DNA of 64,000 nucleotides from Pirellulales bacterium (lineage in GTDB: Bacteria > Planctomycetota > Planctomycetia > Pirellulales > UBA1268): NCBI GenBank assembly GCA_016779265.1, contig JADHNY010000005.1:3477-67476 (forward strand). The letters are read 5' to 3'. Both the position numbers and the translations under genes were made by a program. The notes beneath the pieces are model-generated. The model did not search any database and was not told the origin of the DNA. It worked only from the letters and a program-made list of their open reading frames with translations. Shown here piece after piece: positions 27,909 through 41,732 of this stretch (position 1 is the first letter of the stretch; every line of letters starts with the position of its first letter).

Positions 27909-28445
27909 TTAGAGGTTCATGCCGAGGAAGCCACCGGCCTCGTCGACATGCTGCTGCTCCTGCTCAAGCCGGGCGACCGCCCTCGAGAGATCGCCTGCGG
28001 CGATGTAGCGATCAAACTCAACCTCGACCGCTCGCTTGGCCGAGACGACCAGCCACTCGACTGCCGGCTGCGTGAGCCAGTCGCATGTTTCACGCTCGAG
28101 GTTAATGGAGAGATCACTCCCGACCGTGCGAGTATCGCTTTCATCCGTGAGGACTGTGCCTTCGACAGTGAACTCCACCATCCCGATAGCCGGATCACTG
28201 GTGAGTTGAAAACGGCAGACGGCATTGGTGAGATAGTAGGTGTTGCGAGCGCCGTGGCTGCTTATGGCAGCCTGGATCCGTTCGAGTTTCTGGCGAAAGC
28301 GTGGTGAGGCATCGATTGGGATATCGAGCCGACCAAGGCTTCGTAGCGGCTGGCAGTCGAAGGCGACATGCACCGCAGGTGGAGCCGCAACATCTTCAGG
28401 CACAGATTTTTCAGGCACAGATTGGTCACCGGCTGACGCGTTCAT
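27909..28445 (-). CDS. hypothetical protein (start uncertain)
   Basis: 178-aa ORF with consistent G/C third positions. The N-terminal SVPEKSVPED comes from a 12-nt direct duplication. An alternative GTG start is at 28373. Confidence 0.5.
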   Translation of the reverse strand: MNASAGDQSVPEKSVPEDVAAPPAVHVAFDCQPLRSLGRLDIPIDASPRFRQKLERIQAAISSHGARNTYYLTNAVCRFQLTSDPAIGMVEFTVEGTVLTDESDTRTVGSDLSINLERETCDWLTQPAVEWLVVSAKRAVEVEFDRYIAAGDLSRAVARLEQEQQHVDEAGGFLGMNL

Positions 28446-29538
28446 GATCCCTCCAGCGTATCCGAAACCAGCCCCTCACCAACACATCAGCTGGCAACAG
28501 GTCTGGTGGGTGGTGCTGCTGGTCATCTGCGGAAGTTGCCCAGGATGGGCCTCTGAAGCCACCTGCTCTCGACGGCTGATGGCTGTGGAATGGATCGTCA
28601 CTGTACACGCAGCATCTCCACGCGAAGCCGAGCAGGCGGCGGAAGCGGCCCTCGACCGAGTGGCGGCCATCGAGCGGGTGCTCTCTGACTACGATCGCTC
28701 CAGTGAGGTCTCCCTGTTGATGGCAGCCACTGCCGCCGAGCCAGGCCGCAGCGTTGCTGTCAGCGAGGATCTTGCCGATACGCTGCAGCGAAGCCTGGCG
28801 TTCAGTGAGATGACCGGCGGTGCGTTTGATGTGACCGTCGGACCGCTCACAGCCCTCTGGAGGCAGTCCCGCAAAACCGGCCGGCTGCCCAACCCTGATA
28901 AGCTTGCCGCCGCCCGTTCCGGCACGGGAAGTGAGCAGATTTCTCTGAGCCGTGGGCCTGCTGGCCCAGAGGTTGCCCTCGCCACGGCAGCCACGCGGCT
29001 CGACTTTGGCGGAATCGGAATGGGATACGCCATCGATGCGGCCATGTCGCTGCTGGCCGAACGAGGCATCGAGTCGGCCATGATTGATGCCTCGGGTGAC
29101 ATCGCTGTCTCTGGGCCTCCGCCAGGCCGTGACCACTGGCGAATCGCGGTCCCTCCACTGATGCGAAGGCCTCCCGACAGCGTGGACGTTGCCCAGGTGG
29201 TGGAGCCGGACACCCCAACGCTGGCCCTGGTGCATGCCGCTGTGGCCACCTCAGGCGATGCCTATCAGGCGGTCGTCATCGATGGAGCTCGGTATAGCCA
29301 TATCGTCGATCCTCGCACCGGGCTGGGCGTGGTCGGGCCCACCGCCGTGACAGTGATCGCAAAGGATGCGACCACGGCTGATGCCCTCTCGACTGCCACG
29401 AGCGTGCTCGGCCCTGCTGACGGGCTGGAAGTGATCGAGCAGATCGAGGGAGCAGCCGTTCGCTTCTCGTGGGTCGAGAAAGCGGCACTGCGAGTCGAGG
29501 CGTCGGATCGCTGGGAGACCTATCTCGAGCGTCCCTAA
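28444..29538 (+). CDS. apbE: FAD:protein FMN transferase (ApbE family)
   Basis: RRLMAVEWIVTV, DFGGIGMGYAIDAA, SGDAYQ and SHIVDPRTG. Hydrophobic leader with Cys (VVLLVICGSC). The listed ORF start at 28240 is antisense to the neighbouring gene. Confidence 0.85.
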   Translation: MIPPAYPKPAPHQHISWQQVWWVVLLVICGSCPGWASEATCSRRLMAVEWIVTVHAASPREAEQAAEAALDRVAAIERVLSDYDRSSEVSLLMAATAAEPGRSVAVSEDLADTLQRSLAFSEMTGGAFDVTVGPLTALWRQSRKTGRLPNPDKLAAARSGTGSEQISLSRGPAGPEVALATAATRLDFGGIGMGYAIDAAMSLLAERGIESAMIDASGDIAVSGPPPGRDHWRIAVPPLMRRPPDSVDVAQVVEPDTPTLALVHAAVATSGDAYQAVVIDGARYSHIVDPRTGLGVVGPTAVTVIAKDATTADALSTATSVLGPADGLEVIEQIEGAAVRFSWVEKAALRVEASDRWETYLERP

Positions 29539-29708
29539 ACCCGCCTGGTCGACCCATCTTCCCTCGCAGACACCCCGCTTCCCCCACTCTCCCAGCCGGG
29601 GCGGCAAACCTTGCCGATTACCCCAAGTATGCCGGTGAGTCCGCCGATACCAGATGCACGGGTTTCGCTGGCCCGTCGTTCCTCGGTTCACGCTGGCCTT
29701 AGCAGAGA

Positions 29709-31889
29709 GTGACTCCTCCCGTGATCCAACGCCTCACTCGAATCCCGTTGGTCATCCTGACGAGCGTTGCGATGCTGGCCAGTGGCTGTGCACCGCGACA
29801 GCCCTTCTACTTCTTCGAAGATGGTGACCTCTCGCACTACACCGGTGTGGTGCAGAAGCTGGAGTATCCCGACCTCGATCAGCAACCGCTCGACGAAGCG
29901 GCTGGAACGCTTGAGCCGTTCACGCTCTCGAATGCGAATATCGAAGAGATCTGGGAACTGTCGCTTGAGGATGCGATCCGGATTGCTTTGGAAAACGGCA
30001 AGGTGCTCCGCAACCTTGGTGGTCGCTTCGGCAGTTTTGGTGGACCGCGTCCACAGACAGGCGAGCCTCCCGTCTCGCTGCTAACCGCCCCAGAAGCGAC
30101 CCCCACGATCTATGACCCGGCGATCATCGAAACCGATCCCTTCCGCGGTGTAGAGAGTGCCCTGGCGAGTTTCGATGCCCAGCTCTCGAGCTCCCTCACC
30201 TGGGATCGGCAGAGTCGGCCACAGAACGTCGGCGGCATCGGCACCGCCATCTTCCAGCAGCAGCTTGAAGGCGACACCGGCAACTGGCAGTCGGGCATTC
30301 GCAAGACCACGGCGACGGGTGCCACCTTCAACTTCAGCCAGCTGATCACCTACGACAACAACAACTCGCCTATCAGACAGCGAGATGCCGCCGGCAACGT
30401 GATCGTGCCCTCGACCTGGAGCACCAACTACGACTTCACCTTCAACCAGCCTCTGCTGCAGGGCGGCGGCCTGAACTACAACCGCATTGCCGGCCCCGAC
30501 GCCTTCAACAACCTCTTCGGTCGTCCCAACTTCCGTGGCGTGCTGCTTGCCCGTGTGAATGCTGACATCTCGCTGGCCGAGTTTGAGGTCGGTGTCCGCA
30601 ACATGGTGAGTGACATCGAGCAGTCGTATTGGGAACTCTATTACTCATATCGAGCACTTGAGGCTCGTAAGGCTGGCCGTGACTCTGCTCTGGAAGCCTG
30701 GCGACGGGTACATGCTCTCTATGTGGAGCAGTCTCGTGGTGGTGAGGCCGACAAGGAAGCCCAGGCCCGCGAACAGTACTTCTTCTTCCGCTCTGAAGTG
30801 GAGACAGCCCTGGCGGATGTCTACCGCAGTGAAGATCGCCTGCGGTACATCATGGGCATCACCGCCAGTGACGGCCGTCTGATTCGCCCAGCCGATGAAC
30901 CGACCACAGCCCGCATCGCCTTCGACTGGCAACAGGCCTTGGTCGAGGCGCTCTCTCGATCTCCAGAACTCCGCCGTCAGAAGTGGCGGGTGAAGCAGCG
31001 TGAACTCGAGCTGATTGCTGCCAAGAATCTCGTGCTCCCGCGACTCGACCTGCTGGGAACCTATCGATTCCTCGGCATGGGCCAGGATCTCCTCAATCAG
31101 AACTACAACCCCTATGAGGCAGGTGGTGGGGACCCTCTCTTTGGTACCGATGCCTACTCCACACTCTTCAGCGGTAAGTTCCAGGAGTGGCAGGTGGGGG
31201 CTCAGTTCCTGATGCCGATCGGCTTCCGGCGGGAGCTCTCCACGGTTCGCAACTATCAACTTCAGGTCGCCCGTGAACGTGCTCGGCTGCAGGATGAGGA
31301 GCTCGAGGCGTCTCATGCCTTGGTGGAAGCTGTCCGCAACGTTGACACGAACTTCTCGCTGACGCAGACCAACTTCAACCGTCGTGTGGCGGCGTCTCGC
31401 CAGGTGGAAGCGGTGCAGGCGGCCTACGACGCCGGCACGGTCACCTTTGATCAGCTGCTCGACGCTCAGCGGCGGCTTGCGGAGGCTGAGGTCGCGTATG
31501 CTCGATCTCTCGTGGACTACAACCGATCGATCGCCCAGCTGCATTACCGTAAGGGCTCATTGCTCGAATACAACGGCGTGTTCTTGGCAGAAGGCCCGTG
31601 GCCAGCCAAGGCCTATTTCGATGCCCATCGCCGCGCCCGACAGCGTGATGCGAGCATCTACCTCGACTACGGCCACTCACAGCCTGGCGTCTTCAGTCGT
31701 GGCCCGATCACCCAGAAGTTTGAGTCGATCGGCGCAGACGCTCGTCCCCAGCAGCTCGAGCCACTCGACCCTGCGACCCAGGAACTCCCGCCGCCGGTCG
31801 AGCAGATTCCGGCACCCGTTGGTGAAGAGCCTACGCTCGCAGATCCACAGGCCGTCTCTGCTGCGTCACAGCTCCTGCTGCCCCAGTAA
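29709..31889 (+). CDS. TolC-family outer membrane efflux protein (long, 726 aa)
   Basis: Lipoprotein-like leader (LTSVAMLASGC). OEP-type repeats (LSLEDAIRIALENGKVLRN; ELELIAAKNLVLPRLDL; AYDAGTVTFDQLLDAQRRLAEAEVAYARSLVDYN). GTG start. Confidence 0.8.
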   Translation: MTPPVIQRLTRIPLVILTSVAMLASGCAPRQPFYFFEDGDLSHYTGVVQKLEYPDLDQQPLDEAAGTLEPFTLSNANIEEIWELSLEDAIRIALENGKVLRNLGGRFGSFGGPRPQTGEPPVSLLTAPEATPTIYDPAIIETDPFRGVESALASFDAQLSSSLTWDRQSRPQNVGGIGTAIFQQQLEGDTGNWQSGIRKTTATGATFNFSQLITYDNNNSPIRQRDAAGNVIVPSTWSTNYDFTFNQPLLQGGGLNYNRIAGPDAFNNLFGRPNFRGVLLARVNADISLAEFEVGVRNMVSDIEQSYWELYYSYRALEARKAGRDSALEAWRRVHALYVEQSRGGEADKEAQAREQYFFFRSEVETALADVYRSEDRLRYIMGITASDGRLIRPADEPTTARIAFDWQQALVEALSRSPELRRQKWRVKQRELELIAAKNLVLPRLDLLGTYRFLGMGQDLLNQNYNPYEAGGGDPLFGTDAYSTLFSGKFQEWQVGAQFLMPIGFRRELSTVRNYQLQVARERARLQDEELEASHALVEAVRNVDTNFSLTQTNFNRRVAASRQVEAVQAAYDAGTVTFDQLLDAQRRLAEAEVAYARSLVDYNRSIAQLHYRKGSLLEYNGVFLAEGPWPAKAYFDAHRRARQRDASIYLDYGHSQPGVFSRGPITQKFESIGADARPQQLEPLDPATQELPPPVEQIPAPVGEEPTLADPQAVSAASQLLLPQ

Positions 31890-31920: not shown

Positions 31921-33066
31921 TCATGGTGCCCGCAGCAGCGGCAGTGCAGAGGCCTCGACCGCATCGTCAAACCGCTCGGCGTCGCCGCGGCGAATCGTTT
32001 CCCGCTGCACACGGCCCTGGGGTGTTGGGCAGGCGGTGAGATAGCCCGCAACCGCACGGCGGACAAGCGGATCGTCATCACCGAGCGTCGTCCATAGCGC
32101 TGCCACCTCATCGACCGCTTCCCACCAGCGGTAGCGGGCGAGATCGACCGTCGCCTCCGCCGCCGTCACCGGACTTGTCAGTAGCCGTGCTGTCCCGCGA
32201 GCAACGCGTTCCCTCGGGATCTCTTCACTGAGGCTCTCCCATGCAAACCGCAGCACCGCAAGCATCTGCCGCTTCACCACAGGCGGCGCTGCTGGCTCGA
32301 GCAGCCCCAGAGCGATGAGCTGCTCAAGGCCTGCAACGCCATCAGCCACCAGCACTCCGGCCAGGATGCCGTCAAAGCCTGCCCGGTAGTCATCCGCCGG
32401 CTCGCTGAGGATCTGCAGCAGTGGCTCGCGGCAGGCTGCCCGCTTCTCGGGATCGGCAGCAGCCACGATCCCAAGAGCGAGCCCATAGAAGCCTCGCCGC
32501 TGCTGCGGGATTCCCTCATCGCGGACCCATCGTTGCATTTTGGCCGCGGGCAAGGCATCTGCGGCATCACGAACGGCCTCGAAAGCCGCGGCACCAAACT
32601 CGGCAAACGCATCTTCCGCCAACAGCGGGTCGGGGTGCTCAAGCCAGCGGGCAAACCATCGCAGGCGTGCCGCCGCCGGCTGATCAATGGCGGGCGCTGC
32701 AGCCAGATAGCCCAGCTGGATCTCATCGGCGGGAATCGCCATCTGGCCTGCAGGCTGGTCGAGCCGATCAAAGAACACAGCCGCGGTCCCACGGATCGCT
32801 GTGTCGACACGAGCGATCACCGTCTCACCTGGTGCCAGCGGCCGCTCTCCAGAGAGGCATTGCAGCAGACGAAAAGGCTGCGTCATCACGCCATCGGGCT
32901 GCAGCGTCGCCGGGGCAGTGGCTTCACCGACCGCAACCGCAGCAGCAGTGTCGCGGCGCGCTGCCAACGGCTGCCCTACCGCACCACAGAATGGACAGGC
33001 GGTCGCCTCGCCGCTGATCGTGCTCGCCATCACCGCGGCCAGCACCACGATCACACGAGAGTTCAC
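31921..33066 (-). CDS. secreted helical protein with N-terminal CPFC motif (paralog B)
   Basis: Signal peptide ...STISGEATA followed directly by CPFCGAV. Collinear similarity to the 34348-35898 product. Its GTG start overlaps the upstream TGA (GTGA at 33063-33066). Confidence 0.65.
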   Translation of the reverse strand: MNSRVIVVLAAVMASTISGEATACPFCGAVGQPLAARRDTAAAVAVGEATAPATLQPDGVMTQPFRLLQCLSGERPLAPGETVIARVDTAIRGTAAVFFDRLDQPAGQMAIPADEIQLGYLAAAPAIDQPAAARLRWFARWLEHPDPLLAEDAFAEFGAAAFEAVRDAADALPAAKMQRWVRDEGIPQQRRGFYGLALGIVAAADPEKRAACREPLLQILSEPADDYRAGFDGILAGVLVADGVAGLEQLIALGLLEPAAPPVVKRQMLAVLRFAWESLSEEIPRERVARGTARLLTSPVTAAEATVDLARYRWWEAVDEVAALWTTLGDDDPLVRRAVAGYLTACPTPQGRVQRETIRRGDAERFDDAVEASALPLLRAP

Positions 33067-33647
33067 TCCACTTCCTCACCATCGAGTGAGTAGATCGCCA
33101 GATGCTTTCCATCTGGGCCAATCAGTTCCTCAACATGAAAGGTGCCTGACACCGCCACAGGGCGGACAGAGAAGTTGGTGCTTCGGCCGGGAAGCATGCG
33201 GACCACGATGCAGTCATAGAGCGCTGCACCTGGACCAAAACAACACTCCATGTTGTCCCGGACCAGCACAAACTGCGTGATGCCCTCCTGCTGAAAGCTC
33301 GGCAGGATGTAGCCGCGAATGCGGATTCGGGTTCCATCAAGCGACGCCACTGGGGGCGGGAGGAGATCCCGAGAGAAGGGGTCTCCCTTCTCCATCTCAA
33401 ACTTCACATCGTCAAAGGAGAGGTCCTGGAGCCGCCCGGTCGCCGCGGCCGCTGGGGTGGCCTGAGGCTGAGCATCGGGACTTTCGGCGGCCCCCTGCTG
33501 CTGACTCGCTGCCTCACCTGGAGCTGGTGGCGTCGGTGATGGATCGCCACAGCCAGCAACAGCCACGCTGAGCAGCACCACACTCAATGCCATCTCTGGC
33601 AGTGCAGCGGAGGATCGCTTCGACTGACTGTTAGCGAACAAAGGCAT
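33063..33647 (-). CDS. DUF3299-like lipoprotein
   Basis: Lipobox LSVAVAGC. C-terminal IRIRGYILPSFQQEGITQFVLVRDNMECCFGPG matches the DUF3299 hallmark as I recall it. ATG at 33647 overlaps the upstream gene by 17 nt; an alternative ATG is at 33596. Confidence 0.65.
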   Translation of the reverse strand: MPLFANSQSKRSSAALPEMALSVVLLSVAVAGCGDPSPTPPAPGEAASQQQGAAESPDAQPQATPAAAATGRLQDLSFDDVKFEMEKGDPFSRDLLPPPVASLDGTRIRIRGYILPSFQQEGITQFVLVRDNMECCFGPGAALYDCIVVRMLPGRSTNFSVRPVAVSGTFHVEELIGPDGKHLAIYSLDGEEVE

Positions 33648-34335
33648 CCTCAAGGTGATAGAGCACTCCGCCGTCAAGCGTTGAGGTGCCGGCGGGACGG
33701 ATCGCAAAATGGCCCGCAATCTTCACCAGCCTCGGGGTGAAGTCGATGCCCTCGGCATCCCGCAGCGTGACCAGAACCCGGTCGGTGATCTTCGGGTTCC
33801 CACCGAAGCAGCAGTCGCCCTGATCTCGCACGAGCAGAAACTGCACGATGCCTTCTTGCTCTGTGCCAGGGTACATGTAGCCCTTGAGCAGCACATCCTT
33901 TCCGTCTGCGTCGTACGCTGACGGAGGAACCTGCGTGGCCGGGTCGCCATCCAACGGCTGGAGCATCTGGTAGTTGATGCGGAGAAAGCCTTCAGGAAGC
34001 TCGGCGATGTAGATCTGCGTGAGGGTGGTCAGTCCAGCGATCAGCATTCCCAACGACACCACCATCCCACCAATCGCCAGCGGCGTGCCGACCAGTGCCG
34101 CAGGACGCGAGACGATCTGCCGCCAGCCGATGATGCCGACCACGATGCCGGCAAGCGGCACGACCGACAGCCACCAGTCGGCAAACGCGAGCGGTGAGAG
34201 CACTGCCAACACCAGGCTCCCAATCGCCCAGCCACTGACTGCGCGGTACCCCCCAGCGTCTTCTGGAACAGACTGCTGGTCATCGGGGGTTGTGACGTTG
34301 TCAAACAGGCCAGTGGCCATCACCGCTTCTCCCAC
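33631..34335 (-). CDS. polytopic membrane protein with C-terminal DUF3299-like domain
   Basis: Three to four hydrophobic helices, then VLLKGYMYPGTEQEGIVQFLLVRDQGDCCFGGNP. Paralogous to the downstream gene. Confidence 0.65.
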   Translation of the reverse strand: MGEAVMATGLFDNVTTPDDQQSVPEDAGGYRAVSGWAIGSLVLAVLSPLAFADWWLSVVPLAGIVVGIIGWRQIVSRPAALVGTPLAIGGMVVSLGMLIAGLTTLTQIYIAELPEGFLRINYQMLQPLDGDPATQVPPSAYDADGKDVLLKGYMYPGTEQEGIVQFLLVRDQGDCCFGGNPKITDRVLVTLRDAEGIDFTPRLVKIAGHFAIRPAGTSTLDGGVLYHLEDAFVR

Positions 34336-34347
34336 ACCCCAGGCGTC

Positions 34348-35898
34348 CTACCGCTGCACCGAACCAGCCCGTGGACGCATCACCGCACGGGCCAACATGC
34401 CAACCGCCACCACGATCACTGCCCAGAGCATCCAACGCCCCCAGTCCACCGATGTGTCCGCGACGTCGGGAGCGGTTTCTGGGCCTGCTGATCCGCCACC
34501 CGCGGTCTCCCCATCCGTCTCGACCGCGATCGAAGGATCGATCGCTGGCGTGGCATCCGTGGCGTCGGTGTCGCCCAGCACGGGCGGCACCTGACTGATC
34601 AGATCGGCCTCACTGCCCGTCGCAGCTGTCGAGTCACCCGATCCCTCCGCGGGAGTCGCAGTCGCTTCATTAGGAGCACTGGGGCCCGGTGGTGCGAAGC
34701 CTCCGGCAAATCCCGCCAGTGTGGCCGCCCGTCGCACCGCCTCAGGATCAATCTCCTCACAGCGTGCCAACGCGGCCTCCGCCTCAGGCAGTGGGCAGGC
34801 CCTCAGGTAGTTCACCACCGGCTCGCGGACAAAGATGTTGTCGGTGCCAGCCTCTGCAAACAGCGTCGTCAGCGTGTCGACCACCGACCAGTCCTGCCAG
34901 CGGGCGAGATCCGCAATCACCAGGTCAGCGAGCTTGGGCTCCGCTAGCAGCAGCCGCAGCGACGCGAGCACCCGCTCCCGCGGCACAATCTCGCTCTCCT
35001 CCCCAAGAAACCGCAGCGCCATCACCGCAGCGTAGGTTTCGGTGAAGGGAACATCGCGGTCACCCCGCTTCAGGAACAACTGGTCCACAAGATCAAGCCC
35101 TTCGCCACCCAGCAGTGTGACGTAGCAGGCGATCAGGGCATCGAGGCCCGTTCGCACATCAGGATTGATCGCATCGCCCGAGTGATCCTGAAGGATCGTG
35201 GCGATCGCTGTCGCATCCTCCGCAGTGCCGCAGACACCGAGCATCGTCGCATACAGGCGTCGCCGATTGGCCTGCACGTCAGGATCCTGAATCCAGCCGA
35301 GCAGCGTCGTGGCATTCATGCGGTCCTTGAGTCCACGGACATCGTCATAGGGAGCCACCGCAAACTCGTCGTAGGCATCACGGGCCAGGATGGCGTCGGT
35401 GTCTTCGAGGTAGTCCTGAAAAAAGGCCAGGCGATCTGGACCACCGGCAGGCAGCCCCGGCAGTTCGAGCAGATAGTCCACCACCCGCTCGTTGATTGCG
35501 ATCGGGCTCGACCAGACCAGGTCTGGGGGCTCAATGCCAAGCAGAAGAAACAGTGAGCCAACGGGCTTGTCTTCCAGTAGGATCGCTTCAATCTCAGTGG
35601 CCTCGCCGACCGCCTGCTGTTCCACGAGGTCTGTCCCCTTTAAGACCTGGTCGACTTCAAAGACGCCCTTGGGTAGAGGGCCATCGGCCACGGGGCTCAA
35701 CGCAGCCGCCGGCGGCGGTGTGACCAAGCGGGCCACCACAGCTGCGGCACTCTGCTCGATCTCCTGCGAAAAGGTCAGCGAAACCGCCGAGCAGAAGGGA
35801 CAGGCCCGTGCGATCCCGGGCGCAGTTCCCACGGTGAGGATCAGGGCGAGCGTCATCAGCAGTCGGACAACCGACCGACGGGAATGCTGCGAATGCAT
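34348..35898 (-). CDS. secreted helical protein with N-terminal CPFC motif, acidic linker and C-terminal TM anchor (paralog A)
   Basis: ATG at 35898 with GGAG about 10 nt upstream. Leader MHSQHSRRSVVRLLMTLALILTVGTAPGIARA is followed by CPFCSAV. Asp/Thr/Gly-rich tail and a terminal TM helix (WMLWAVIVVAVGMLA). The listed ORF (to 36246) overlaps the permease gene. Confidence 0.65.
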   Translation of the reverse strand: MHSQHSRRSVVRLLMTLALILTVGTAPGIARACPFCSAVSLTFSQEIEQSAAAVVARLVTPPPAAALSPVADGPLPKGVFEVDQVLKGTDLVEQQAVGEATEIEAILLEDKPVGSLFLLLGIEPPDLVWSSPIAINERVVDYLLELPGLPAGGPDRLAFFQDYLEDTDAILARDAYDEFAVAPYDDVRGLKDRMNATTLLGWIQDPDVQANRRRLYATMLGVCGTAEDATAIATILQDHSGDAINPDVRTGLDALIACYVTLLGGEGLDLVDQLFLKRGDRDVPFTETYAAVMALRFLGEESEIVPRERVLASLRLLLAEPKLADLVIADLARWQDWSVVDTLTTLFAEAGTDNIFVREPVVNYLRACPLPEAEAALARCEEIDPEAVRRAATLAGFAGGFAPPGPSAPNEATATPAEGSGDSTAATGSEADLISQVPPVLGDTDATDATPAIDPSIAVETDGETAGGGSAGPETAPDVADTSVDWGRWMLWAVIVVAVGMLARAVMRPRAGSVQR

Positions 35899-36038
35899 AG
35901 AACTTCTCCGGGGCGCGAACCGCTTCAGTTTAGGCCATCGGCTGGAGGACCGCTGCGACTGGTGCGGGGGAATTTTAGGTCGCATCCCTTGCCAGCAGAG
36001 GCCCAGTGGCACCAGGGACACACCGACGACCACTCGGC

Positions 36039-37403
36039 TCACCCACCTCGCTGCAGCCAGCGAGCCACATCGGTGCGGTAGGCCATGACCGCGGGAAGCA
36101 GCCCCGCCGCGACCGCCAACGCAATCAAAAAAGGCACCAGCAGCAGTTCTGCCCCGGGGGCTGCCGAGAGCACACTCGCCGAGACACCTGCGTTTGTGGC
36201 GATCCAAGGGCCGATCGCACCGACCACCAGGTGACCCAACGCCCATCCTGTCAGACCGCCACAGCCGGCCAGCAGCACGGCCTCCAAGAGCACCGTCAGC
36301 AAGACATGCGAGCGGCGTGCACCCAGTGCCCGCATGATGGCCACATCACGGGTTCTCTCCAGCGAAGAGCCGACCATGCTCACCAGAATGCCGACTGCAG
36401 AAACAATCACCACCAGCACGGTGATCAGGAGCAGCAGTCGCTCAAGCGGCCAGACAAACAGGTCGAGCAGCTGACGGATCTCGCCAATCGGCAGCACCGC
36501 CTGCCCATCGGACCCTTCGTTGATCACTGTCCGCATGCCCATCGAGGTCAACTCCGGTGGAAGCCCGGGCAGGCTGGCAGTCTTTACCAGGATCGAGGTC
36601 ACCTCTCGCTGTGCCTCGGGAAGTGGCTGTGGTCCAGAAGACGCGTTGTCACTCGCGGCGGTGGCATCCACGGCAGCATCAGCGGAGGCTGCCGCCAGGA
36701 GTGCTTCTTCCTCCTCGTCGTCGAGAGGCTTGGCATGCCCCTCCTGGAGATAAAAGCCTTCCATGTTCACAAACACGCCACGGTCAATCGGCGTGTCGGT
36801 CGCGGCCACGATGCCCACCACGACAAACGGATCATGCTCTGGTCCGTCATCGGCACCATGCGTCGGCTTGATCGCATCGCCAACCGCAAGGCCTGTGTCA
36901 GCTGCCACTGACGCGCCGAGCACCGCCTCAAAGAAGTTAGCGTCTTCGAGGTTGCGACCGTCGGCAAACGCAAAGGGTGTGCCTCGACTACGCGTGAGTT
37001 TTCCGAACAGATCAGCGTTGGTGCCGATCACTCGGTAGCCGCGGTAGTAGTCGCCCATGCAGATTGGCACAGCCACTTCGACGCTCGAGGCGAAGTCGCC
37101 ATCTTCACCATCGCTGCGGCGACTGGCTGGCTGGAAGTCTGAGTAAAACTCCCAGGAGATGTTTTCGATCGGCTTGCTGATGTAGTAGACGCTGTTGAGC
37201 ACCAGCTGCAGCGGGCTGCCTTTGGCTCCCACAATCATGTTGTAGCCGAGGCCCGTTCCCGACTCGAACGCCTGCCGCACAATCCCTCCGGTAATCAGCG
37301 TGGCCACGACAAGGCCCACACCCAACGCCAGCGAGAAGACGGTCAGACTGCTGGTCAAGGTTCGCTGCCGAATGTTTCGCCAGGCGATTCCCAGAAGCGT
37401 CAT
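36039..37403 (-). CDS. ABC transporter permease, FtsX/MacB type
   Basis: TM1, a roughly 250-aa periplasmic domain, then three C-terminal TM helices of the FtsX pattern (RDVAIMRALGARRSHV...). ATGA overlap with the ATPase gene. Confidence 0.85.
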   Translation of the reverse strand: MTLLGIAWRNIRQRTLTSSLTVFSLALGVGLVVATLITGGIVRQAFESGTGLGYNMIVGAKGSPLQLVLNSVYYISKPIENISWEFYSDFQPASRRSDGEDGDFASSVEVAVPICMGDYYRGYRVIGTNADLFGKLTRSRGTPFAFADGRNLEDANFFEAVLGASVAADTGLAVGDAIKPTHGADDGPEHDPFVVVGIVAATDTPIDRGVFVNMEGFYLQEGHAKPLDDEEEEALLAAASADAAVDATAASDNASSGPQPLPEAQREVTSILVKTASLPGLPPELTSMGMRTVINEGSDGQAVLPIGEIRQLLDLFVWPLERLLLLITVLVVIVSAVGILVSMVGSSLERTRDVAIMRALGARRSHVLLTVLLEAVLLAGCGGLTGWALGHLVVGAIGPWIATNAGVSASVLSAAPGAELLLVPFLIALAVAAGLLPAVMAYRTDVARWLQRGG

Positions 37404-38110
37404 GCATCACCTCCGGCAGAGGCAGCCTTGGCGAGTACTCGGTTGAATGACTCAATCCGTACCCGTCGGGGAAACTGCTCAGCAACTTCTGGCGTGTGTG
37501 TCACGACCACGAGCGCCACGTTCTGCTCCTGACAGGTCTGCTTGAGGAGATCGACCACCTGCTGCTGATGGGCTGGGTCGATGCTGGCTGTCGGCTCATC
37601 GGCGAGGATCACCTTCGGCTGATTCGCCAGCGCCCGGGCCACCGCCACGCGTTGCTGCTCACCCACGCTCAAGGCCGCAGGCTTGTGTGAGAGGCGATGC
37701 CCCAGGCCCACGCTTGTGAGCAATGACTCTGCCCGGCTTCGGTCAGGTCGCGCAGACGAGAAGGCCATCGCCACAAGCACATTCTCGATCGCTGTGAAAC
37801 CGGGTAGGAGATTGAACTGCTGAAAGACAAGCCCCAAACGATCGGCTCGAACGCGGTCACGGGCGGCCTCTGGCAGCCGAGCGAGGTCGACGCCGTCGAG
37901 CACGACGCGTCCTGAATCAGGCCGCATGATGCCGGCAATCACATTCAAGAGCGTGGTCTTGCCAGACCCACTGTGCCCTTCGAGTGCCACCTGCTCACCA
38001 GCCATCACCTCAAACCGTTCGACGTCAAGAATCGGCACGGCCTCACCGGCCGGCGTCCGAAACGCCTTTCGCACCTGCTCGAGCTGAATCACTGCGTCTG
38101 CCATAGGCAA
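37400..38110 (-). CDS. ABC transporter ATP-binding protein (MacB/LolD family)
   Basis: Walker A GHSGSGKTT, signature LSVGEQQRVAVARAL, Walker B VILADEPTASID. Confidence 0.9.
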   Translation of the reverse strand: MPMADAVIQLEQVRKAFRTPAGEAVPILDVERFEVMAGEQVALEGHSGSGKTTLLNVIAGIMRPDSGRVVLDGVDLARLPEAARDRVRADRLGLVFQQFNLLPGFTAIENVLVAMAFSSARPDRSRAESLLTSVGLGHRLSHKPAALSVGEQQRVAVARALANQPKVILADEPTASIDPAHQQQVVDLLKQTCQEQNVALVVVTHTPEVAEQFPRRVRIESFNRVLAKAASAGGDA

Positions 38111-38168
38111 TCACGATACCAGACACCCGACACAACCGTGGACAGCAGTGTCCATGCTGCGAGCGTTC

Positions 38169-39086
38169 CTAGAACGCCCCCGCCCCACCGACGTAGTAGG
38201 TCGTCGCCGGACCGGACTTGTTGGTGGCGGCATTGAAACTGCCGAAGATCGTGAAGCGGCGGTTGATGTTGTGCACCATGCCGCCACCGAGCACCGTCTG
38301 GCTCGCGGGCCGCGGCAGGGCAGCCTGATTCTGAAAGCCCTGCAGGAAGATCGAAGTGTGCTCCGTGATGCCCCTGGCAAATGACCACTGAACAGAATCG
38401 GTGTAGTTGAAGCCGCCGTCGGGTGTTTCATACGTGACAAGGCCCACGTTCCAGTTGACCTCCCAGCCCCATGGCAGGGTGTTGAGAAAGAGCAGCGAAA
38501 TGCCTGGCTGGGTGCCCGCGTCAAAGTCTGGGGTTCCCCAGGGAGTCTGCACGTAGATCTCCATGCCTGTGGCCGGCACAAACAGCTCTTTATCTTCTTC
38601 GAAGAAGTGGATCTTGGTGTCGAAAACGAGGGGCGCAAAGCCGACAACCTCCGGCTCACCGAGACCGGCATTTACCCACGAGAGACCATTTCCATAGAGG
38701 CGAAACTCGACGCGGTCTGTCACTCCCATCCGCAGGAGGTAGTTCCAGCTGTAGCTCTCCGGCTGGAGCGTGTTGATGCTCGCGGTGTAGGTCAGTGGAC
38801 TCATTTCGAGATAGTTCCAGCCTCTCGGCAGCGTGTAGGGGCTGTTCGGGAAGTCGGAGGAGTCTGGGCCGGGTGCTCGAATGTCTGGGGCCTCAAGAGA
38901 CGTCAGCGGATTCACGGGATCAGCAAACGCGCGAGCAAGGAAGCGAGTCCAGGCCCGCGAAGAGTTGAGATCCGGGTCGTCGTCACCCTGGAGAGGGATG
39001 CCGTCGAGGTCGGCAGGATTGGCCCGAGGCGTGAGCGTCTGGGCCTGGGCCCGTGGCAGCCAGGCACCGACTGCCATCACAAGCAT
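38169..39086 (-). CDS. putative outer-membrane beta-barrel protein
   Basis: Only the 3' 305 codons of the listed 777-aa ORF. They carry a signal-like MLVMAVGAWLPRAQA, Gly/aromatic-rich beta-strand periodicity and a terminal ...GGAGAF. ATG at 39086; no better in-frame start was found upstream. Confidence 0.6.
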   Translation of the reverse strand: MLVMAVGAWLPRAQAQTLTPRANPADLDGIPLQGDDDPDLNSSRAWTRFLARAFADPVNPLTSLEAPDIRAPGPDSSDFPNSPYTLPRGWNYLEMSPLTYTASINTLQPESYSWNYLLRMGVTDRVEFRLYGNGLSWVNAGLGEPEVVGFAPLVFDTKIHFFEEDKELFVPATGMEIYVQTPWGTPDFDAGTQPGISLLFLNTLPWGWEVNWNVGLVTYETPDGGFNYTDSVQWSFARGITEHTSIFLQGFQNQAALPRPASQTVLGGGMVHNINRRFTIFGSFNAATNKSGPATTYYVGGAGAF

Positions 39087-39203
39087 TCCAGCCGCGAAAA
39101 ACTGCCAAAATCGCCCACGACCGCGAACGGCTGCCCCCGTTTGAGTAGGCCCCTGTAAACCGTGTATAGTCTCGCCGTCAACGAAACCCACAGGAGTGAT
39201 CAC

Positions 39204-40220
39204 GTGTCCATTCGCGTCGGCATTAACGGATTCGGCCGCATCGGCCGCCTTACCTTTCGCGCCATCTTCGAAAAGTTCGGCCTCGACGGTGACGTCCAAG
39301 TTGTTGCCATCAACGACCTGACCGACGCCGCAACCAACGCACACCTGCTGGCATTCGACTCCAACTACGGCCCCTTCAAGGGCCAGGTGGCTGCCGACGG
39401 CACTGACCTCGTCGTCGACGGCCGCACGATCAAGGTCTTCGCCGAGCGCGAGCCAGGCTCGATTCCATGGGGGAGCCAGGACGTCGACATCGTCGTGGAG
39501 AGCACCGGTTTCTTCACCGACGCCACCAAGGCAGTCGCTCACAAGCGCGACAGCGTGAAGAAGGTGGTCATCTCCGCTCCTGCCAAGAACGAAGATCTGA
39601 CGATCGTTCTCGGCGTGAATGACGGGATGTACGATCCCTCCAAGCATCACGTCATCTCGAATGCGTCCTGCACCACCAACGGTCTCGCCCCCGTGGCAAA
39701 GGTGCTTCACGAGACGTTTGGCATCGACCGTGGTCTGCTGACCACCGTGCACGCCTTCACCAACAGCCAGCGGACGGTCGACACTGCCGCGAAGGACCTG
39801 CGAGACGCTCGTGCCGCTTCCCTGAATATCGTCCCCTCGAGCACCGGTGCTGCGAAGGCTGTTGGCCTCGTGATTCCGGAACTGCAGGGCAAGTTCACCG
39901 GCATGGCCTTCCGCGTGCCCGTGGCGACGGTCAGCGTGGTCGACTTCACCGCCATCCTGAACAAGGATGCGAGCCCCGCTGAGATCAATGCCGCCATGAA
40001 GCAGGCTGCCGACGGGCCGCTCAAGGGCATCCTTCGCTACACGGAACTGCCACTGGTCTCGACCGACCTGCGTGGCGATTCCCACAGCTCGATCTTCTCG
40101 GCTATCGAGACGATCGGCCTGGGCAACTTCGTTAAGGTCGTCAGCTGGTACGACAACGAGTGGGGCTACTCGTCCCGCGTTGCAGATCTGCTCAACTTCC
40201 TGGAGCGGAAGGGGCTCTAA
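39204..40220 (+). CDS. gap: type I glyceraldehyde-3-phosphate dehydrogenase
   Basis: INGFGRIGR, SNASCTTN and WYDNEWGYS. The GTG at 39204 lies 7 nt after AGGAG (39192-39196). The listed start at 39162 adds 14 non-conserved residues. Confidence 0.9.
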   Translation: MSIRVGINGFGRIGRLTFRAIFEKFGLDGDVQVVAINDLTDAATNAHLLAFDSNYGPFKGQVAADGTDLVVDGRTIKVFAEREPGSIPWGSQDVDIVVESTGFFTDATKAVAHKRDSVKKVVISAPAKNEDLTIVLGVNDGMYDPSKHHVISNASCTTNGLAPVAKVLHETFGIDRGLLTTVHAFTNSQRTVDTAAKDLRDARAASLNIVPSSTGAAKAVGLVIPELQGKFTGMAFRVPVATVSVVDFTAILNKDASPAEINAAMKQAADGPLKGILRYTELPLVSTDLRGDSHSSIFSAIETIGLGNFVKVVSWYDNEWGYSSRVADLLNFLERKGL

Positions 40221-40562: not shown

Positions 40563-41732
40563 TTAGGGAATGCTGATCGGTGTCTCTGCGCGGGCCACCC
40601 CCTCAGCCGCTCGCAGTTCCACGTGCACCACTCCGGCGAACTTTTGAGGTGCCTGCTGCCACGGCAGGAGGAATCGCAGGCCTCGACTGCGAGACGTACT
40701 GCGGAACGTGCTCGCGGCATCTGCAGCGGGAATCGTCCAGGAGGCAAGGGCTGCCGAAGACTCGTGTACCGAGGCTGGGTGCACAGTGATCACGACATCG
40801 CCGCTGGCAGCGATCAGCCGCTCATCAAGATCCCTCGGCTCAAACACCACCGAGAGCGCATCCGGGATGCCATCTGTGTTGGTGTCAACGGCCCGTGTCT
40901 CTGAGCGATTGATCACGATTCGCTCCAGAACCGCCTCGACAGGCAGCGGGGCCAGGGAGGACGCCTCACCATCGATCGACGCTGCCATCTCCTGCTGATA
41001 CGAGAGCGGCTGGATGAAACCTCCAGTTGGCCGACGAAAGTCATCCTGGATCGCCGATGCCTGCTGAGCAGTTTCATCAAGCAGGCCGGGGGCTGAGGCC
41101 TGTGGTGCCACAAATGTTGGAGCAAAACTCGGACCATCGTCAAATCCGTCATTGAGCGGATCACTCCCCACCTCAGGAATCACCTCCGGCTCGAGAGCGG
41201 GCACGGTCACCTCAGGCATCAGACCGAAGGCAGGCGGTGCGTCACCACCATCATCACCAGGAGTATCGCCATCAGCACCGTCTACAGGACCGGAAGGGAG
41301 GGGCGGCACGCCCTCAAGCACCGGCAGCCCTGCAGGAGCCGGCGGCGACGTGGGCGGCGGCAGCACAGATGGGGGAGCCGGATCGGAGAGCTCGATCGTC
41401 GGTGGCGCAAAAGCTGGTGCAGAACTGCTCCCACTCGACGAGGATCGACCAGAGGCAGTTCCGCCTGCACGGCCACGAACAGGAGCCGCATCACCGTAAC
41501 CCAGCTGTCGCTTGAGCGATGCGTTCTCCTGAACCACATACTCCAGCCGAGCGCACTTCTCATCGAGCACGTCTTGCAGACGGTAGATCTGATCTTCCTG
41601 CAGCCGCAGCTCTCGCTCCAGTAGCTGGCTGTTGAGATGGCTCTGACAGCCAACGAGTGTGCTTCCAACAAGGGCGACAACGGCGGCCGTCGCCAGTCCA
41701 TTAGCTTTCGTCACTGACAAGCAGTGTGCCAT
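40563..41732 (-). CDS. hypothetical lipoprotein with coiled-coil and Pro-rich regions
   Basis: Lipobox LVGC, a heptad-like segment (LERELRLQEDQIYRLQDVLDEK), a Pro/Ser/Gly-rich middle and a beta-rich C-terminus. No family recognised. Confidence 0.55.
   Translation of the reverse strand: MAHCLSVTKANGLATAAVVALVGSTLVGCQSHLNSQLLERELRLQEDQIYRLQDVLDEKCARLEYVVQENASLKRQLGYGDAAPVRGRAGGTASGRSSSSGSSSAPAFAPPTIELSDPAPPSVLPPPTSPPAPAGLPVLEGVPPLPSGPVDGADGDTPGDDGGDAPPAFGLMPEVTVPALEPEVIPEVGSDPLNDGFDDGPSFAPTFVAPQASAPGLLDETAQQASAIQDDFRRPTGGFIQPLSYQQEMAASIDGEASSLAPLPVEAVLERIVINRSETRAVDTNTDGIPDALSVVFEPRDLDERLIAASGDVVITVHPASVHESSAALASWTIPAADAASTFRSTSRSRGLRFLLPWQQAPQKFAGVVHVELRAAEGVARAETPISIP

Follow-up and report, generated by a model that had tools for sequence, protein, structure and literature searches.

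A conserved triad of CPFC and DUF3299 genes beside a split MacB/FtsX-type ABC pair in Pirellulales, a candidate periplasmic relay

A gene cluster on the minus strand of a 64,000-nucleotide stretch of DNA from a Pirellulales bacterium (contig JADHNY010000005.1 of assembly GCA_016779265.1, positions 3,477 to 67,476; hereafter the window) contains a conserved core of three genes, coding for a protein with a CPFC motif (CPFC-A), a transmembrane (TM)-anchored DUF3299 protein (TM-DUF3299), and a DUF3299 lipoprotein. A pair of ATP-binding cassette (ABC) genes, coding for an ATPase and a permease, is a frequent, non-obligatory neighbour of this core. An earlier note on the window, made from its sequence alone, had described a larger unit, namely a seven-gene envelope operon in which the three core genes and the ABC pair were joined by a dedicated beta-barrel outer-membrane protein (OMP) and by a second CPFC protein (CPFC-B), with no membrane-fusion protein (MFP) as adaptor. 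The cluster may, tentatively and by analogy with the zinc-starvation systems of Vibrio and Pseudomonas, encode a periplasmic relay that is driven by the MacB-type pair and passes on a thiol-binding metal.

The gene neighbourhood was compared in two sets of 80 loci. The close set was retrieved by a genome scan with the CPFC-B alignment and consisted of Planctomycetota metagenome-assembled genomes, some bins of which were labelled Candidatus Kuenenia or Chitinophagaceae and were taken as mislabelled. The distant set consisted of metagenome-contig loci found via divergent CPFC representatives, with CPFC-A being 39-49% identical to the window copy. For the distant set, linkage is given over the loci with room for the gene in question. 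A DUF3299 gene directly followed CPFC-A in 46 out of 47 distant loci, and a second DUF3299 gene was present in 29 out of 37. The gene immediately ahead of CPFC-A was that of the permease in almost all close loci and in 19 of the 42 distant ones, and the ATPase copies upstream of the module in distant loci were 54-63% identical. In three loci (L089, L092, and L108), the triad formed a stand-alone three-gene unit with unrelated opposite-strand genes on either side. In close loci, the order was GAPDH, OMP (where present), ATPase, permease, CPFC-A, TM-DUF3299, DUF3299 lipoprotein, an interval of ~3 kb (where present), and CPFC-B, followed by the opposite-strand genes for a TolC-like OEP and ApbE. 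This gene order is beyond chance, because it recurs in more than 100 independent contigs.

The seven-gene operon with its own barrel did not survive this comparison as a unit. CPFC-B was absent from all 23 distant loci with room for it, the sole distant occurrence being in L161, and is a clade-specific add-on outside the deep core. The OMP gene was present in five out of 38 close loci. The OEP gene followed CPFC-B in 35 out of 62 close loci, and in the distant set it was missing from all 80; this convergent TolC-like gene is a syntenic neighbour and no component. Furthermore, OEP, ApbE, GAPDH, and OMP never occurred in the 80 distant loci. The linkage of GAPDH in close loci was as good as that of OEP, and the equal conservation of such a neighbour indicates that synteny among close relatives says little about function. 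Conserved linkage, on which the reading of the locus as one system depended, was thus found across distant loci for the CPFC-A/DUF3299 triad and was lacking for the OMP, CPFC-B, and the TolC-like gene. Further partners, such as a redox supplier, a regulator or an MFP, were not found either, as clustering of the open reading frames (ORFs) of the 80 distant loci gave only housekeeping synteny (DUF4432, LipA, SmpB, and Mrp).

Several features of the neighbourhood varied among close relatives. The lipoprotein gene and CPFC-B were separated by ~3 kb in 44 out of 57 close loci. In L010 (L010:7129-9984), this interval was occupied by three co-directional genes, coding for a Bestrophin-like protein (PF14023), a Peripla_BP_5 protein (PF13433, urea/amide-type binding), and an AIM24 protein (PF01987); they recurred together in 50 close loci and were missing from the window and ~13 loci. 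In L029 and L053, the block of GAPDH, ATPase, and permease was inverted relative to CPFC-A, leaving the ABC pair divergent yet still adjacent. Similarly, GAPDH was inverted directly before CPFC-A in L049, a locus that ends there. The genes for ApbE, the TolC-like OEP, and a small ORF of ~150 amino acids formed a conserved unit of their own (window 28240-31889; L164:1522-5743), which in L164 was located away from the CPFC cluster and ~1.7 kb from a PF13557 OMP paralogue. The OEP of the window is a lipoprotein of 726 amino acids with a Pro-rich C-terminal tail.

The CPFC proteins, of which the earlier note had seen two, are a real paralogous pair (31% identity, E = 2e-28). A profile of both sub-families, searched against 1.84 billion cluster representatives (50% identity), retrieved 2635 clusters at E ≤ 1e-3, of which 1032 reached E ≤ 1e-30. 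The CPFC-OB-HEAT proteins are a large, uncurated new protein family; the homologues of CPFC-B numbered 464, and every named one was from Planctomycetota. The CPFC motif was kept in all 118 locus-derived family members that contained the motif region and, among 150 representatives of clusters formed at 50% identity, in 137, most of the others being truncated or carrying a rare CxxC variant; among these 150 representatives, no Cys-to-Ser or Cys-to-His variants occurred. The residue before the motif (position -1) was A, G or S in 113 out of 118 members and position -3 was mostly A or V. From this sequence pattern, a Sec signal peptide ending in a signal peptidase I site of the AxA type is predicted directly before CPFC, so that the mature protein would start with Cys. 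The conserved cysteines of CPFC-A are C33, C36, C223, C258, and C368, the last one being part of a CPxP motif directly before helix 371-383 of the AlphaFold2 (AF2) model. The only conserved His, H144, is confined to CPFC-B. In addition, the two types differ at their C-terminus. A-type proteins end in a disordered tail followed by a C-terminal TM anchor, a TM-like stretch being found in 93 of the 118 members, whereas CPFC-B is soluble, with a C-terminal TM segment in none of 67 B-type members.

In the AF2 model of CPFC-A (predicted local distance difference test (pLDDT) 87.7, predicted TM-score (pTM) 0.81), an N-terminal hydrophobic helix and a low-confidence CPFC segment are followed by a beta domain, which spans residues 43-135, and by a solenoid of helical repeats, which spans residues 137-399. 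Foldseek matched the solenoid to HEAT/ARM proteins and the beta domain to agrin NtA (target-normalised TM-score 0.48-0.53) and, weakly, to TIMP-2, the E-values for the beta domain being only ~1e-2; the beta domain is therefore predicted to be an OB-type module of the NTR/TIMP kind. CPFC-A had no PDB sequence match and only a weak HEAT_2 match in Pfam, and its top 50 Foldseek matches contained no MFP, LolA/B or metallochaperone. Several other identities were considered for the CPFC proteins. Lipoproteins were ruled out, because position -2 is often charged (R, E or D), which excludes a lipobox, with position -3 being mostly A. A haem c site at CPFC was ruled out too, as no His follows the CxxC. 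A thioredoxin-like fold was unsupported by the AF2 model and by Foldseek, and a divergent DUF3299 in the N-domain was rejected by profile-profile comparison (hhalign probability below 1%). CPFC-B-type genes also occurred outside the cluster in unrelated contexts (L003, L013, L016, L027, L036, and L061); in L003:6537-11188, such a gene is located behind genes for a Peptidase_S46 protein and an HD-like protein of 231 amino acids and adjoins the genes of an ECF sigma factor and of a WD40-repeat Ser/Thr kinase.

The two DUF3299 genes are paralogous (BLASTP E = 1e-18; hhalign family-family probability 99.7%). The lipoprotein matched PF11736 with 26.5 bits against a cut-off of 22, as did 17 out of 17 orthologues, and it matched PDB entry 4hsp both as a single sequence (E = 1.3e-4) and as a profile (E = 1.3e-5). 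Orthologues of TM-DUF3299 matched PF11736 in eight out of 19 cases and DUF4190 in 17 out of 19, and their family profile matched 4hsp as well (E = 8e-4). Both DUF3299 calls of the earlier note are hence borne out. In TM-DUF3299, the DUF4190-like region is read as approximately three N-terminal TM helices, predicted to be followed by a periplasmic OB-fold DUF3299 domain. The lipoprotein contains a lipobox (VAGC), a Pro/Ala/Gln-rich linker of ~50 amino acids, and a DUF3299 domain with ECCFGPGAALYDC, for which an OB fold is taken over from P. aeruginosa PA4066, a protein with this fold (PMC8561739). Both forms carry a vicinal pair of cysteines within the motif (T/E)CCFG(G/P), the pair being present in 109 out of 114 ORFs of the TM form and in 91 out of 98 of the lipoprotein form. 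This is CCFGG in TM-DUF3299 (C175 and C176), the domain of which has no other Cys; the conserved cysteines of the lipoprotein are C135, C136, and C146. In alignments with PA4066, the second Cys of the pair coincides with that of GACIH, the position of the His being Gly here. The PA4066 motif G-A-C-I-H-x-P-P-P-P, which we take to be canonical for DUF3299 as a whole, is not kept in either DUF3299 protein, and only its Cys remains. A minority of lipoprotein-type genes carries ECKFGPGGQADH instead of ECCFGPGAALYDC, with a single Cys and a nearby Asp-His gained; this variant was seen in the second DUF3299 gene of L095, L119, L142, L146, and L158. In L156:11318-12667, both DUF3299 frames are apparently fused into one ORF of 450 amino acids, either by true fusion or by a sequencing frameshift.

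The ATPase matched PF00005 (E = 1.5e-33) in Pfam; its best NCBIfam matches were LolD, DevA, FtsE, YbbA, and MacB, all under the equivalog cut-offs. The permease matched PF02687 (E = 1.5e-13; residues 326-445) and PF12704, MacB_PCD (E = 4.4e-12; residues 18-249), with PDB sequence matches to MacB, YtrF, FtsX, and LolF. Judged by these matches, the two proteins are a split MacB/FtsX-type (type VII) ABC system, as the earlier note had proposed. Its statement that a membrane-fusion adaptor is missing holds too, as no HlyD/MFP family of Pfam was found in the seven proteins, the two flanking genes, and ten further ORFs between 19312 and 48281 (within ~12 kb). Similarly, the four accessory proteins, i.e. 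both CPFC and both DUF3299 proteins, which had been left without an assigned function, resembled no MFP, LolA/B or known metallochaperone in Pfam, NCBIfam or PDB sequence searches or, in the case of CPFC-A, among the top 50 Foldseek matches; CusF, CopC, PCuAC, and Sco were the metallochaperones considered.

That DUF3299 accompanies FtsX-type ABC pairs in operons under Zur control, as the earlier note had stated for zrgABCDE and PA4063-PA4066, is confirmed by the literature (PMC9817125; PMC11481552). In V. parahaemolyticus, zrgE codes for a DUF3299 protein, zrgB for an ABC permease, and zrgC for an ATP-binding subunit, and the zrg operon is Zur-regulated and 75- to 200-fold induced under zinc limitation (PMC9817125). 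In P. aeruginosa, PA4064 and PA4065 have been modelled as the two parts of a split MacB, for which export of pyochelin-cobalt has been proposed, their loss altering the cobalt and zinc status; the DUF3299 protein PA4066 (4hsp) has no assigned role and is said to be invariably associated with PA4064/65 (PMC11481552). Because of this analogy and of the fit of a CPxC(G/S) knuckle and the CC pairs, a MacB-driven relay that would hand on a thiol-binding metal in the periplasm is put forward for the window, as a low-confidence reading with less than an even chance of being right. The ABC pair would work as a type VII mechanotransducer and not as a cross-membrane pump, the ATP-driven motion of the periplasmic domain of the permease acting on membrane-tethered accessory proteins. 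These would pass a thiol-binding cargo among the cysteine motifs CPFC, CPxP, and CC, the most likely cargo being an ion of a Zn/Co/Cu-class transition metal. Such a system would be the Planctomycetota counterpart of ZrgBC-ZrgE and PA4064-65-PA4066, in which the CPFC protein may fill the slot of the His-rich ZrgA/PA4063.

Several points weigh against this metal relay. Periplasmic cysteines often form structural disulfides, and the CPFC segment has a low pLDDT in the AF2 model. The strict invariance of Pro and Phe in CPFC exceeds the needs of simple metal ligation. No metal regulator, Zur/Fur-like box or riboswitch was found at the locus, the neighbours being housekeeping genes, and no His-rich ZrgA/PA4063-like protein is encoded there. 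In addition, 23 of the 42 distant loci lack an adjacent ABC pair; the module may do without the motor, or the motor genes may be located elsewhere. Finally, PA4066 shows no evident zinc binding (PMC11481552) and single knock-outs of zrgE, like those of zrgD, have no phenotype (PMC9820375), so that a metal role of DUF3299 is not established even by the reference systems. A bolder form of the metal relay, which must be considered unlikely, is a Planctomycetota-wide periplasmic machine for metal (or sulfur) insertion or extraction, in which the cleavage-exposed CPFC peptide would dock on the CC site of DUF3299, forming a shared tetrathiolate site, and the MacB-type motor would drive the hand-over. 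Its proposed parallel is NosDFY, where an ABC engine is used for periplasmic metal trafficking. If true, it would also explain the enigmatic ZrgE and PA4066 of pathogens.

A first alternative, possible albeit on the unlikely side, is a function in envelope maintenance like that of LolCDE, FtsEX or HrtBA. At the outer face of the inner membrane, the MacB-type motor would extract or activate its substrate, be it a protein, a lipoprotein, a lipid or a small hydrophobic molecule; the HEAT solenoid of CPFC-A would be a scaffold that binds proteins or peptides, the OB-fold DUF3299 proteins would be carriers or adaptors, and the conserved cysteines would form structural disulfides. Such roles are known for type VII ABC systems that lack an MFP (LolCDE, FtsEX, BceAB, and HrtBA), and the ATPase is nearest to LolD, DevA, FtsE, and YbbA. 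HEAT/ARM solenoids are typically protein-binding, the neighbours are housekeeping genes without metal regulation, and the OMP class has been implicated in hydrophobic-molecule uptake and polypeptide secretion (PMC4493636). However, a LolA/LolB-like, EnvC-like or hydrolase partner is missing. A vicinal CC pair can give only a strained disulfide, it is near-invariant, and the domain of TM-DUF3299 has no other Cys, which argues for a functional thiol pair. Moreover, the Cys aligned with C-I-H of PA4066 is conserved across DUF3299, and the only DUF3299 systems studied are metal-regulated.

The implicit model of the earlier note, a tripartite efflux or secretion pump that exits via the TolC-like OEP or the COG4313 barrel and in which the DUF3299 pair replaces the MFP, is improbable. 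It is suggested by the TolC-family gene at 31 nt and the OMP gene upstream, by the combined TM and lipid anchoring of the DUF3299 pair, which we infer to mirror that of MFPs, and by the proposal that PA4064/65 is an exporter (PMC11481552). Yet both exit ducts fail the linkage comparison given above, the OEP gene being no better linked than GAPDH and forming a unit of its own with ApbE, also away from the cluster (L164). Furthermore, the small OB domain of DUF3299 lacks an alpha-hairpin or lipoyl domain with which a TolC duct could be reached, and no HlyD-type family matched.

Equally improbable is a periplasmic thiol-disulfide or persulfide relay, in which CPFC would act like DsbA or glutaredoxin and CPxP like TusA, the CC pairs would serve as acceptors or donors of electrons or sulfane sulfur, and a thiol compound might be delivered or taken away by the ABC pair. 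The C-P-aromatic-C form is that of the active sites of DsbA, DsbG, and Grx, and CPxP is the TusA-type motif, located just ahead of helix 371-383 in the AF2 model; all conserved cysteines are predicted to be extracytoplasmic. Such a relay is at odds with the lack of a thioredoxin fold, CPFC being located in a low-confidence coil before the OB-like domain. Nor did the conserved neighbours include a DsbD/CcdA-type reductant supplier, a rhodanese or a Sox gene, or the 150 cluster representatives any CxxS variant. Lastly, the genes might be independent of one another and lie side by side in a narrow clade by chance or synteny, as may be suspected from the conserved close neighbours without a plausible functional tie (GAPDH, OEP, and ApbE), the three unrelated genes between the lipoprotein gene and CPFC-B in most close relatives, and promoter-like sequences near the ATPase gene. 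This is highly improbable and, for the core, excluded. In 46 of 47 loci, CPFC-A and the DUF3299 genes keep their order at 39-49% identity, all other neighbours having changed; moreover, start and stop codons overlap, and the ABC pair is adjacent again in 19 independent distant loci.

The layout of the locus is given in Table 1. The seven minus-strand ORFs, their overlaps and gaps, and the position of the convergent TolC-family gene (PF02321) were all reproduced from the ORF list as the earlier note had stated them. The genes of the ATPase and the permease overlap by 4 nt, those of TM-DUF3299 and the DUF3299 lipoprotein by 17 nt, and those of the lipoprotein and CPFC-B by 4 nt. The gap between OMP and ATPase is 58 nt with the coordinates of the ORF list, and CPFC-A is separated from TM-DUF3299 by 12 nt; the stop codon of CPFC-B is 31 nt from the end of the TolC-like OEP gene. 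Two starts deserve attention. CPFC-A may alternatively start at the in-frame ATG 35985, which would reduce the gap to the permease gene from 140 to 53 nt. The OMP probably starts at GTG 39191 rather than at ATG 39086, because a conserved basic n-region (RGRGRFW) is located upstream of 39086 and because orthologues have no Met in that stretch, relatives being called at 336-341 amino acids. This start overlaps the longest GAPDH ORF, the true start of which is probably near 39204. With both starts, the divergent OMP and GAPDH genes would be only ~12 nt apart, and a GAPDH promoter-like site (39141-39170, plus strand) would fall within the OMP coding region. Further away, between GAPDH and two ClpP genes, a minus-strand ORF of 389 amino acids (40563-41732) without a Pfam match begins like a lipoprotein (LVGC) and also contains a coiled segment and an extended region rich in Pro, Ala, and Ser.

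Table 1. Genes of the cluster and the convergent neighbour in the window.
Feature	Position	Strand	Basis
OMP (outer-membrane channel)	38169-39086 or -39191	-	ORF list; inside longer ORF
ABC ATPase	37400-38110	-	PF00005
FtsX/MacB_PCD permease	36039-37403	-	PF02687 + PF12704
CPFC-A	34348-35898	-	Inside longer ORF; AF2 model, family CPFC motif
TM-anchored DUF3299 protein	33631-34335	-	Lipoprotein paralogue, PDB 4hsp profile match
DUF3299 lipoprotein	33063-33647	-	Inside ORF 33063-33719; PF11736
CPFC-B	31921-33066	-	CPFC-A paralogue
TolC-like OEP	29709-31889	+	PF02321

Concerning regulation, relatives without the OMP gene contained a sigma-70-like sequence (TTGACA-N17-19-TAnnnT) just upstream of the ATPase gene, with the GAPDH promoter on the other strand; in the 58-nt gap of the window, only the -10-like TGGTATCGT is kept. 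The search for Zur/Fur-type boxes that the earlier note had suggested gave no AT-rich Zur/Fur-like palindrome or conserved operator upstream of the ATPase gene in 37 aligned regions, the Zur motif of Planctomycetota not being identified. Also, no metal regulator gene was present among the ten flanking ORFs (19312-48281), Rfam gave sub-threshold noise only and no riboswitch, the intergenic gaps contained no inverted repeats of at least 10 nt, and terminators were no more frequent than in shuffled sequence, with none within the intergenic gaps. The gap between OMP and ATPase contains a palindrome, TGGACAnnnnTGTCCA (38139-38154), ~29 nt before the ATPase start. As a perfect 6-4-6 palindrome (TGGACAGCAGTGTCCA), it occurs once in the 64-kb window, with 0 occurrences expected by chance, and it was not seen upstream in L005, L032, and L083.

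The OMP of the window had no direct Pfam or PDB sequence match, but 26 out of 38 of its homologues (32-84% identical) matched PF13557. Its AF2 model (pLDDT 83, pTM 0.81) contains 12 long strands after an N-terminal segment of ~90 residues, and its best Foldseek matches were the COG4313 channel Pput2725 (4rl8, E = 2.5e-9) and FapF, with target-normalised TM-scores of 0.6-0.65. Going by this model, the OMP is a 12-stranded channel of the COG4313/PF13557 (Phenol_MetA_deg)/FapF-like type, and the beta-barrel proposed in the earlier note is real. COG4313 channels are implicated in taking up hydrophobic molecules (PMC4493636). The OMP gene is located beside the ABC cluster in one sub-clade only; close orthologues are found within the cluster (L165), and more distant ones elsewhere. 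It is a lineage-specific addition and not a component of the conserved unit. One of the five close-locus copies, the orthologue in L018 (L018:3733-4620), with an in-frame stop and a scrambled middle, is probably a pseudogene, which fits an OMP that is dispensable for the cluster.

The significance of the locus lies first in DUF3299, the role of which, like the transport direction of its ABC pairs, is unsettled in the zinc-starvation regulons of Vibrio and Pseudomonas. The locus shows the pairing of DUF3299 with a split MacB in a distant phylum and in a richer form, providing mutable residues and defined partners with which the function of DUF3299 can be tested. It also offers a test case for a mechanotransducing ABC motor without a membrane-fusion adaptor. 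In addition, the CPFC family could enter domain databases, and the operon boundaries are corrected, neither the barrel nor the TolC-like gene being a component.

Among known systems, agrin NtA and TIMP-2 resemble CPFC-A in that its beta domain superposes on them and in that the predicted mature N-terminal Cys directly follows the signal-peptide cut, as in TIMPs. In contrast to TIMP/NTR proteins, the OB domain of CPFC-A has no conserved Cys to tether the N-terminus, a HEAT solenoid is fused to it, and a protease partner is not evident. The COG4313/PF13557 channels (4rl8) and FapF share with the OMP the 12-stranded barrel and the N-terminal segment, and its ~50%-identical homologues match PF13557, whereas the OMP of the window itself stays under the Pfam threshold and is linked to the ABC cluster in a single sub-clade. 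As in LolCDE, FtsEX, BceAB, and HrtBA, the ABC pair is accompanied by non-MFP partners, and the ATPase is nearest to LolD, FtsE, and DevA; a LolA/B, EnvC/PcsB, BceS or haem-related partner is nevertheless absent, and all NCBIfam equivalog cut-offs are missed widely (e.g. 19 bits versus 362 for lolCE). MacAB-TolC, PvdRT-OpmQ, and DevBCA-HgdD have the same permease fold family (FtsX TM region and MacB periplasmic core domain), a LolD/MacB-type ATPase, and a TolC-family gene nearby. They differ from the window locus, where neither the operon nor the ORFs scanned within ~12 kb include an MFP, the nucleotide-binding and transmembrane domains are on separate chains, and the TolC-like gene is unlinked in distant relatives.

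The Zrg and PA4063-66 systems come closest. Here as there, the ATPase and the FtsX/MacB_PCD permease are encoded by separate genes, a DUF3299 protein is part of the operon, an MFP is missing, and the mechanism is unsettled. These systems already display an MFP-less MacB together with DUF3299, so that this part of the architecture, which the earlier note could not match as a whole to a described system, has a precedent. The differences concern the partners and the setting. Two DUF3299 proteins, one TM-anchored and one a lipoprotein, occur instead of a single soluble one, and they carry CCFG instead of GACIHxPPPP. ZrgD and a His-rich ZrgA/PA4063 are lacking, none of the seven proteins being His-rich or matching DUF2796 (ZrgA/PA4063), and the CPFC-OB-HEAT family is found in their place. 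Also, no Zur box was found, and the locus belongs to Planctomycetota rather than Gammaproteobacteria. The combination of a split MacB pair with DUF3299 is therefore already known, though unexplained, whereas the obligatorily linked CPFC-OB-HEAT family, the CC-type DUF3299 in two anchoring forms, and the occurrence of the triad without an adjacent ABC pair are new.

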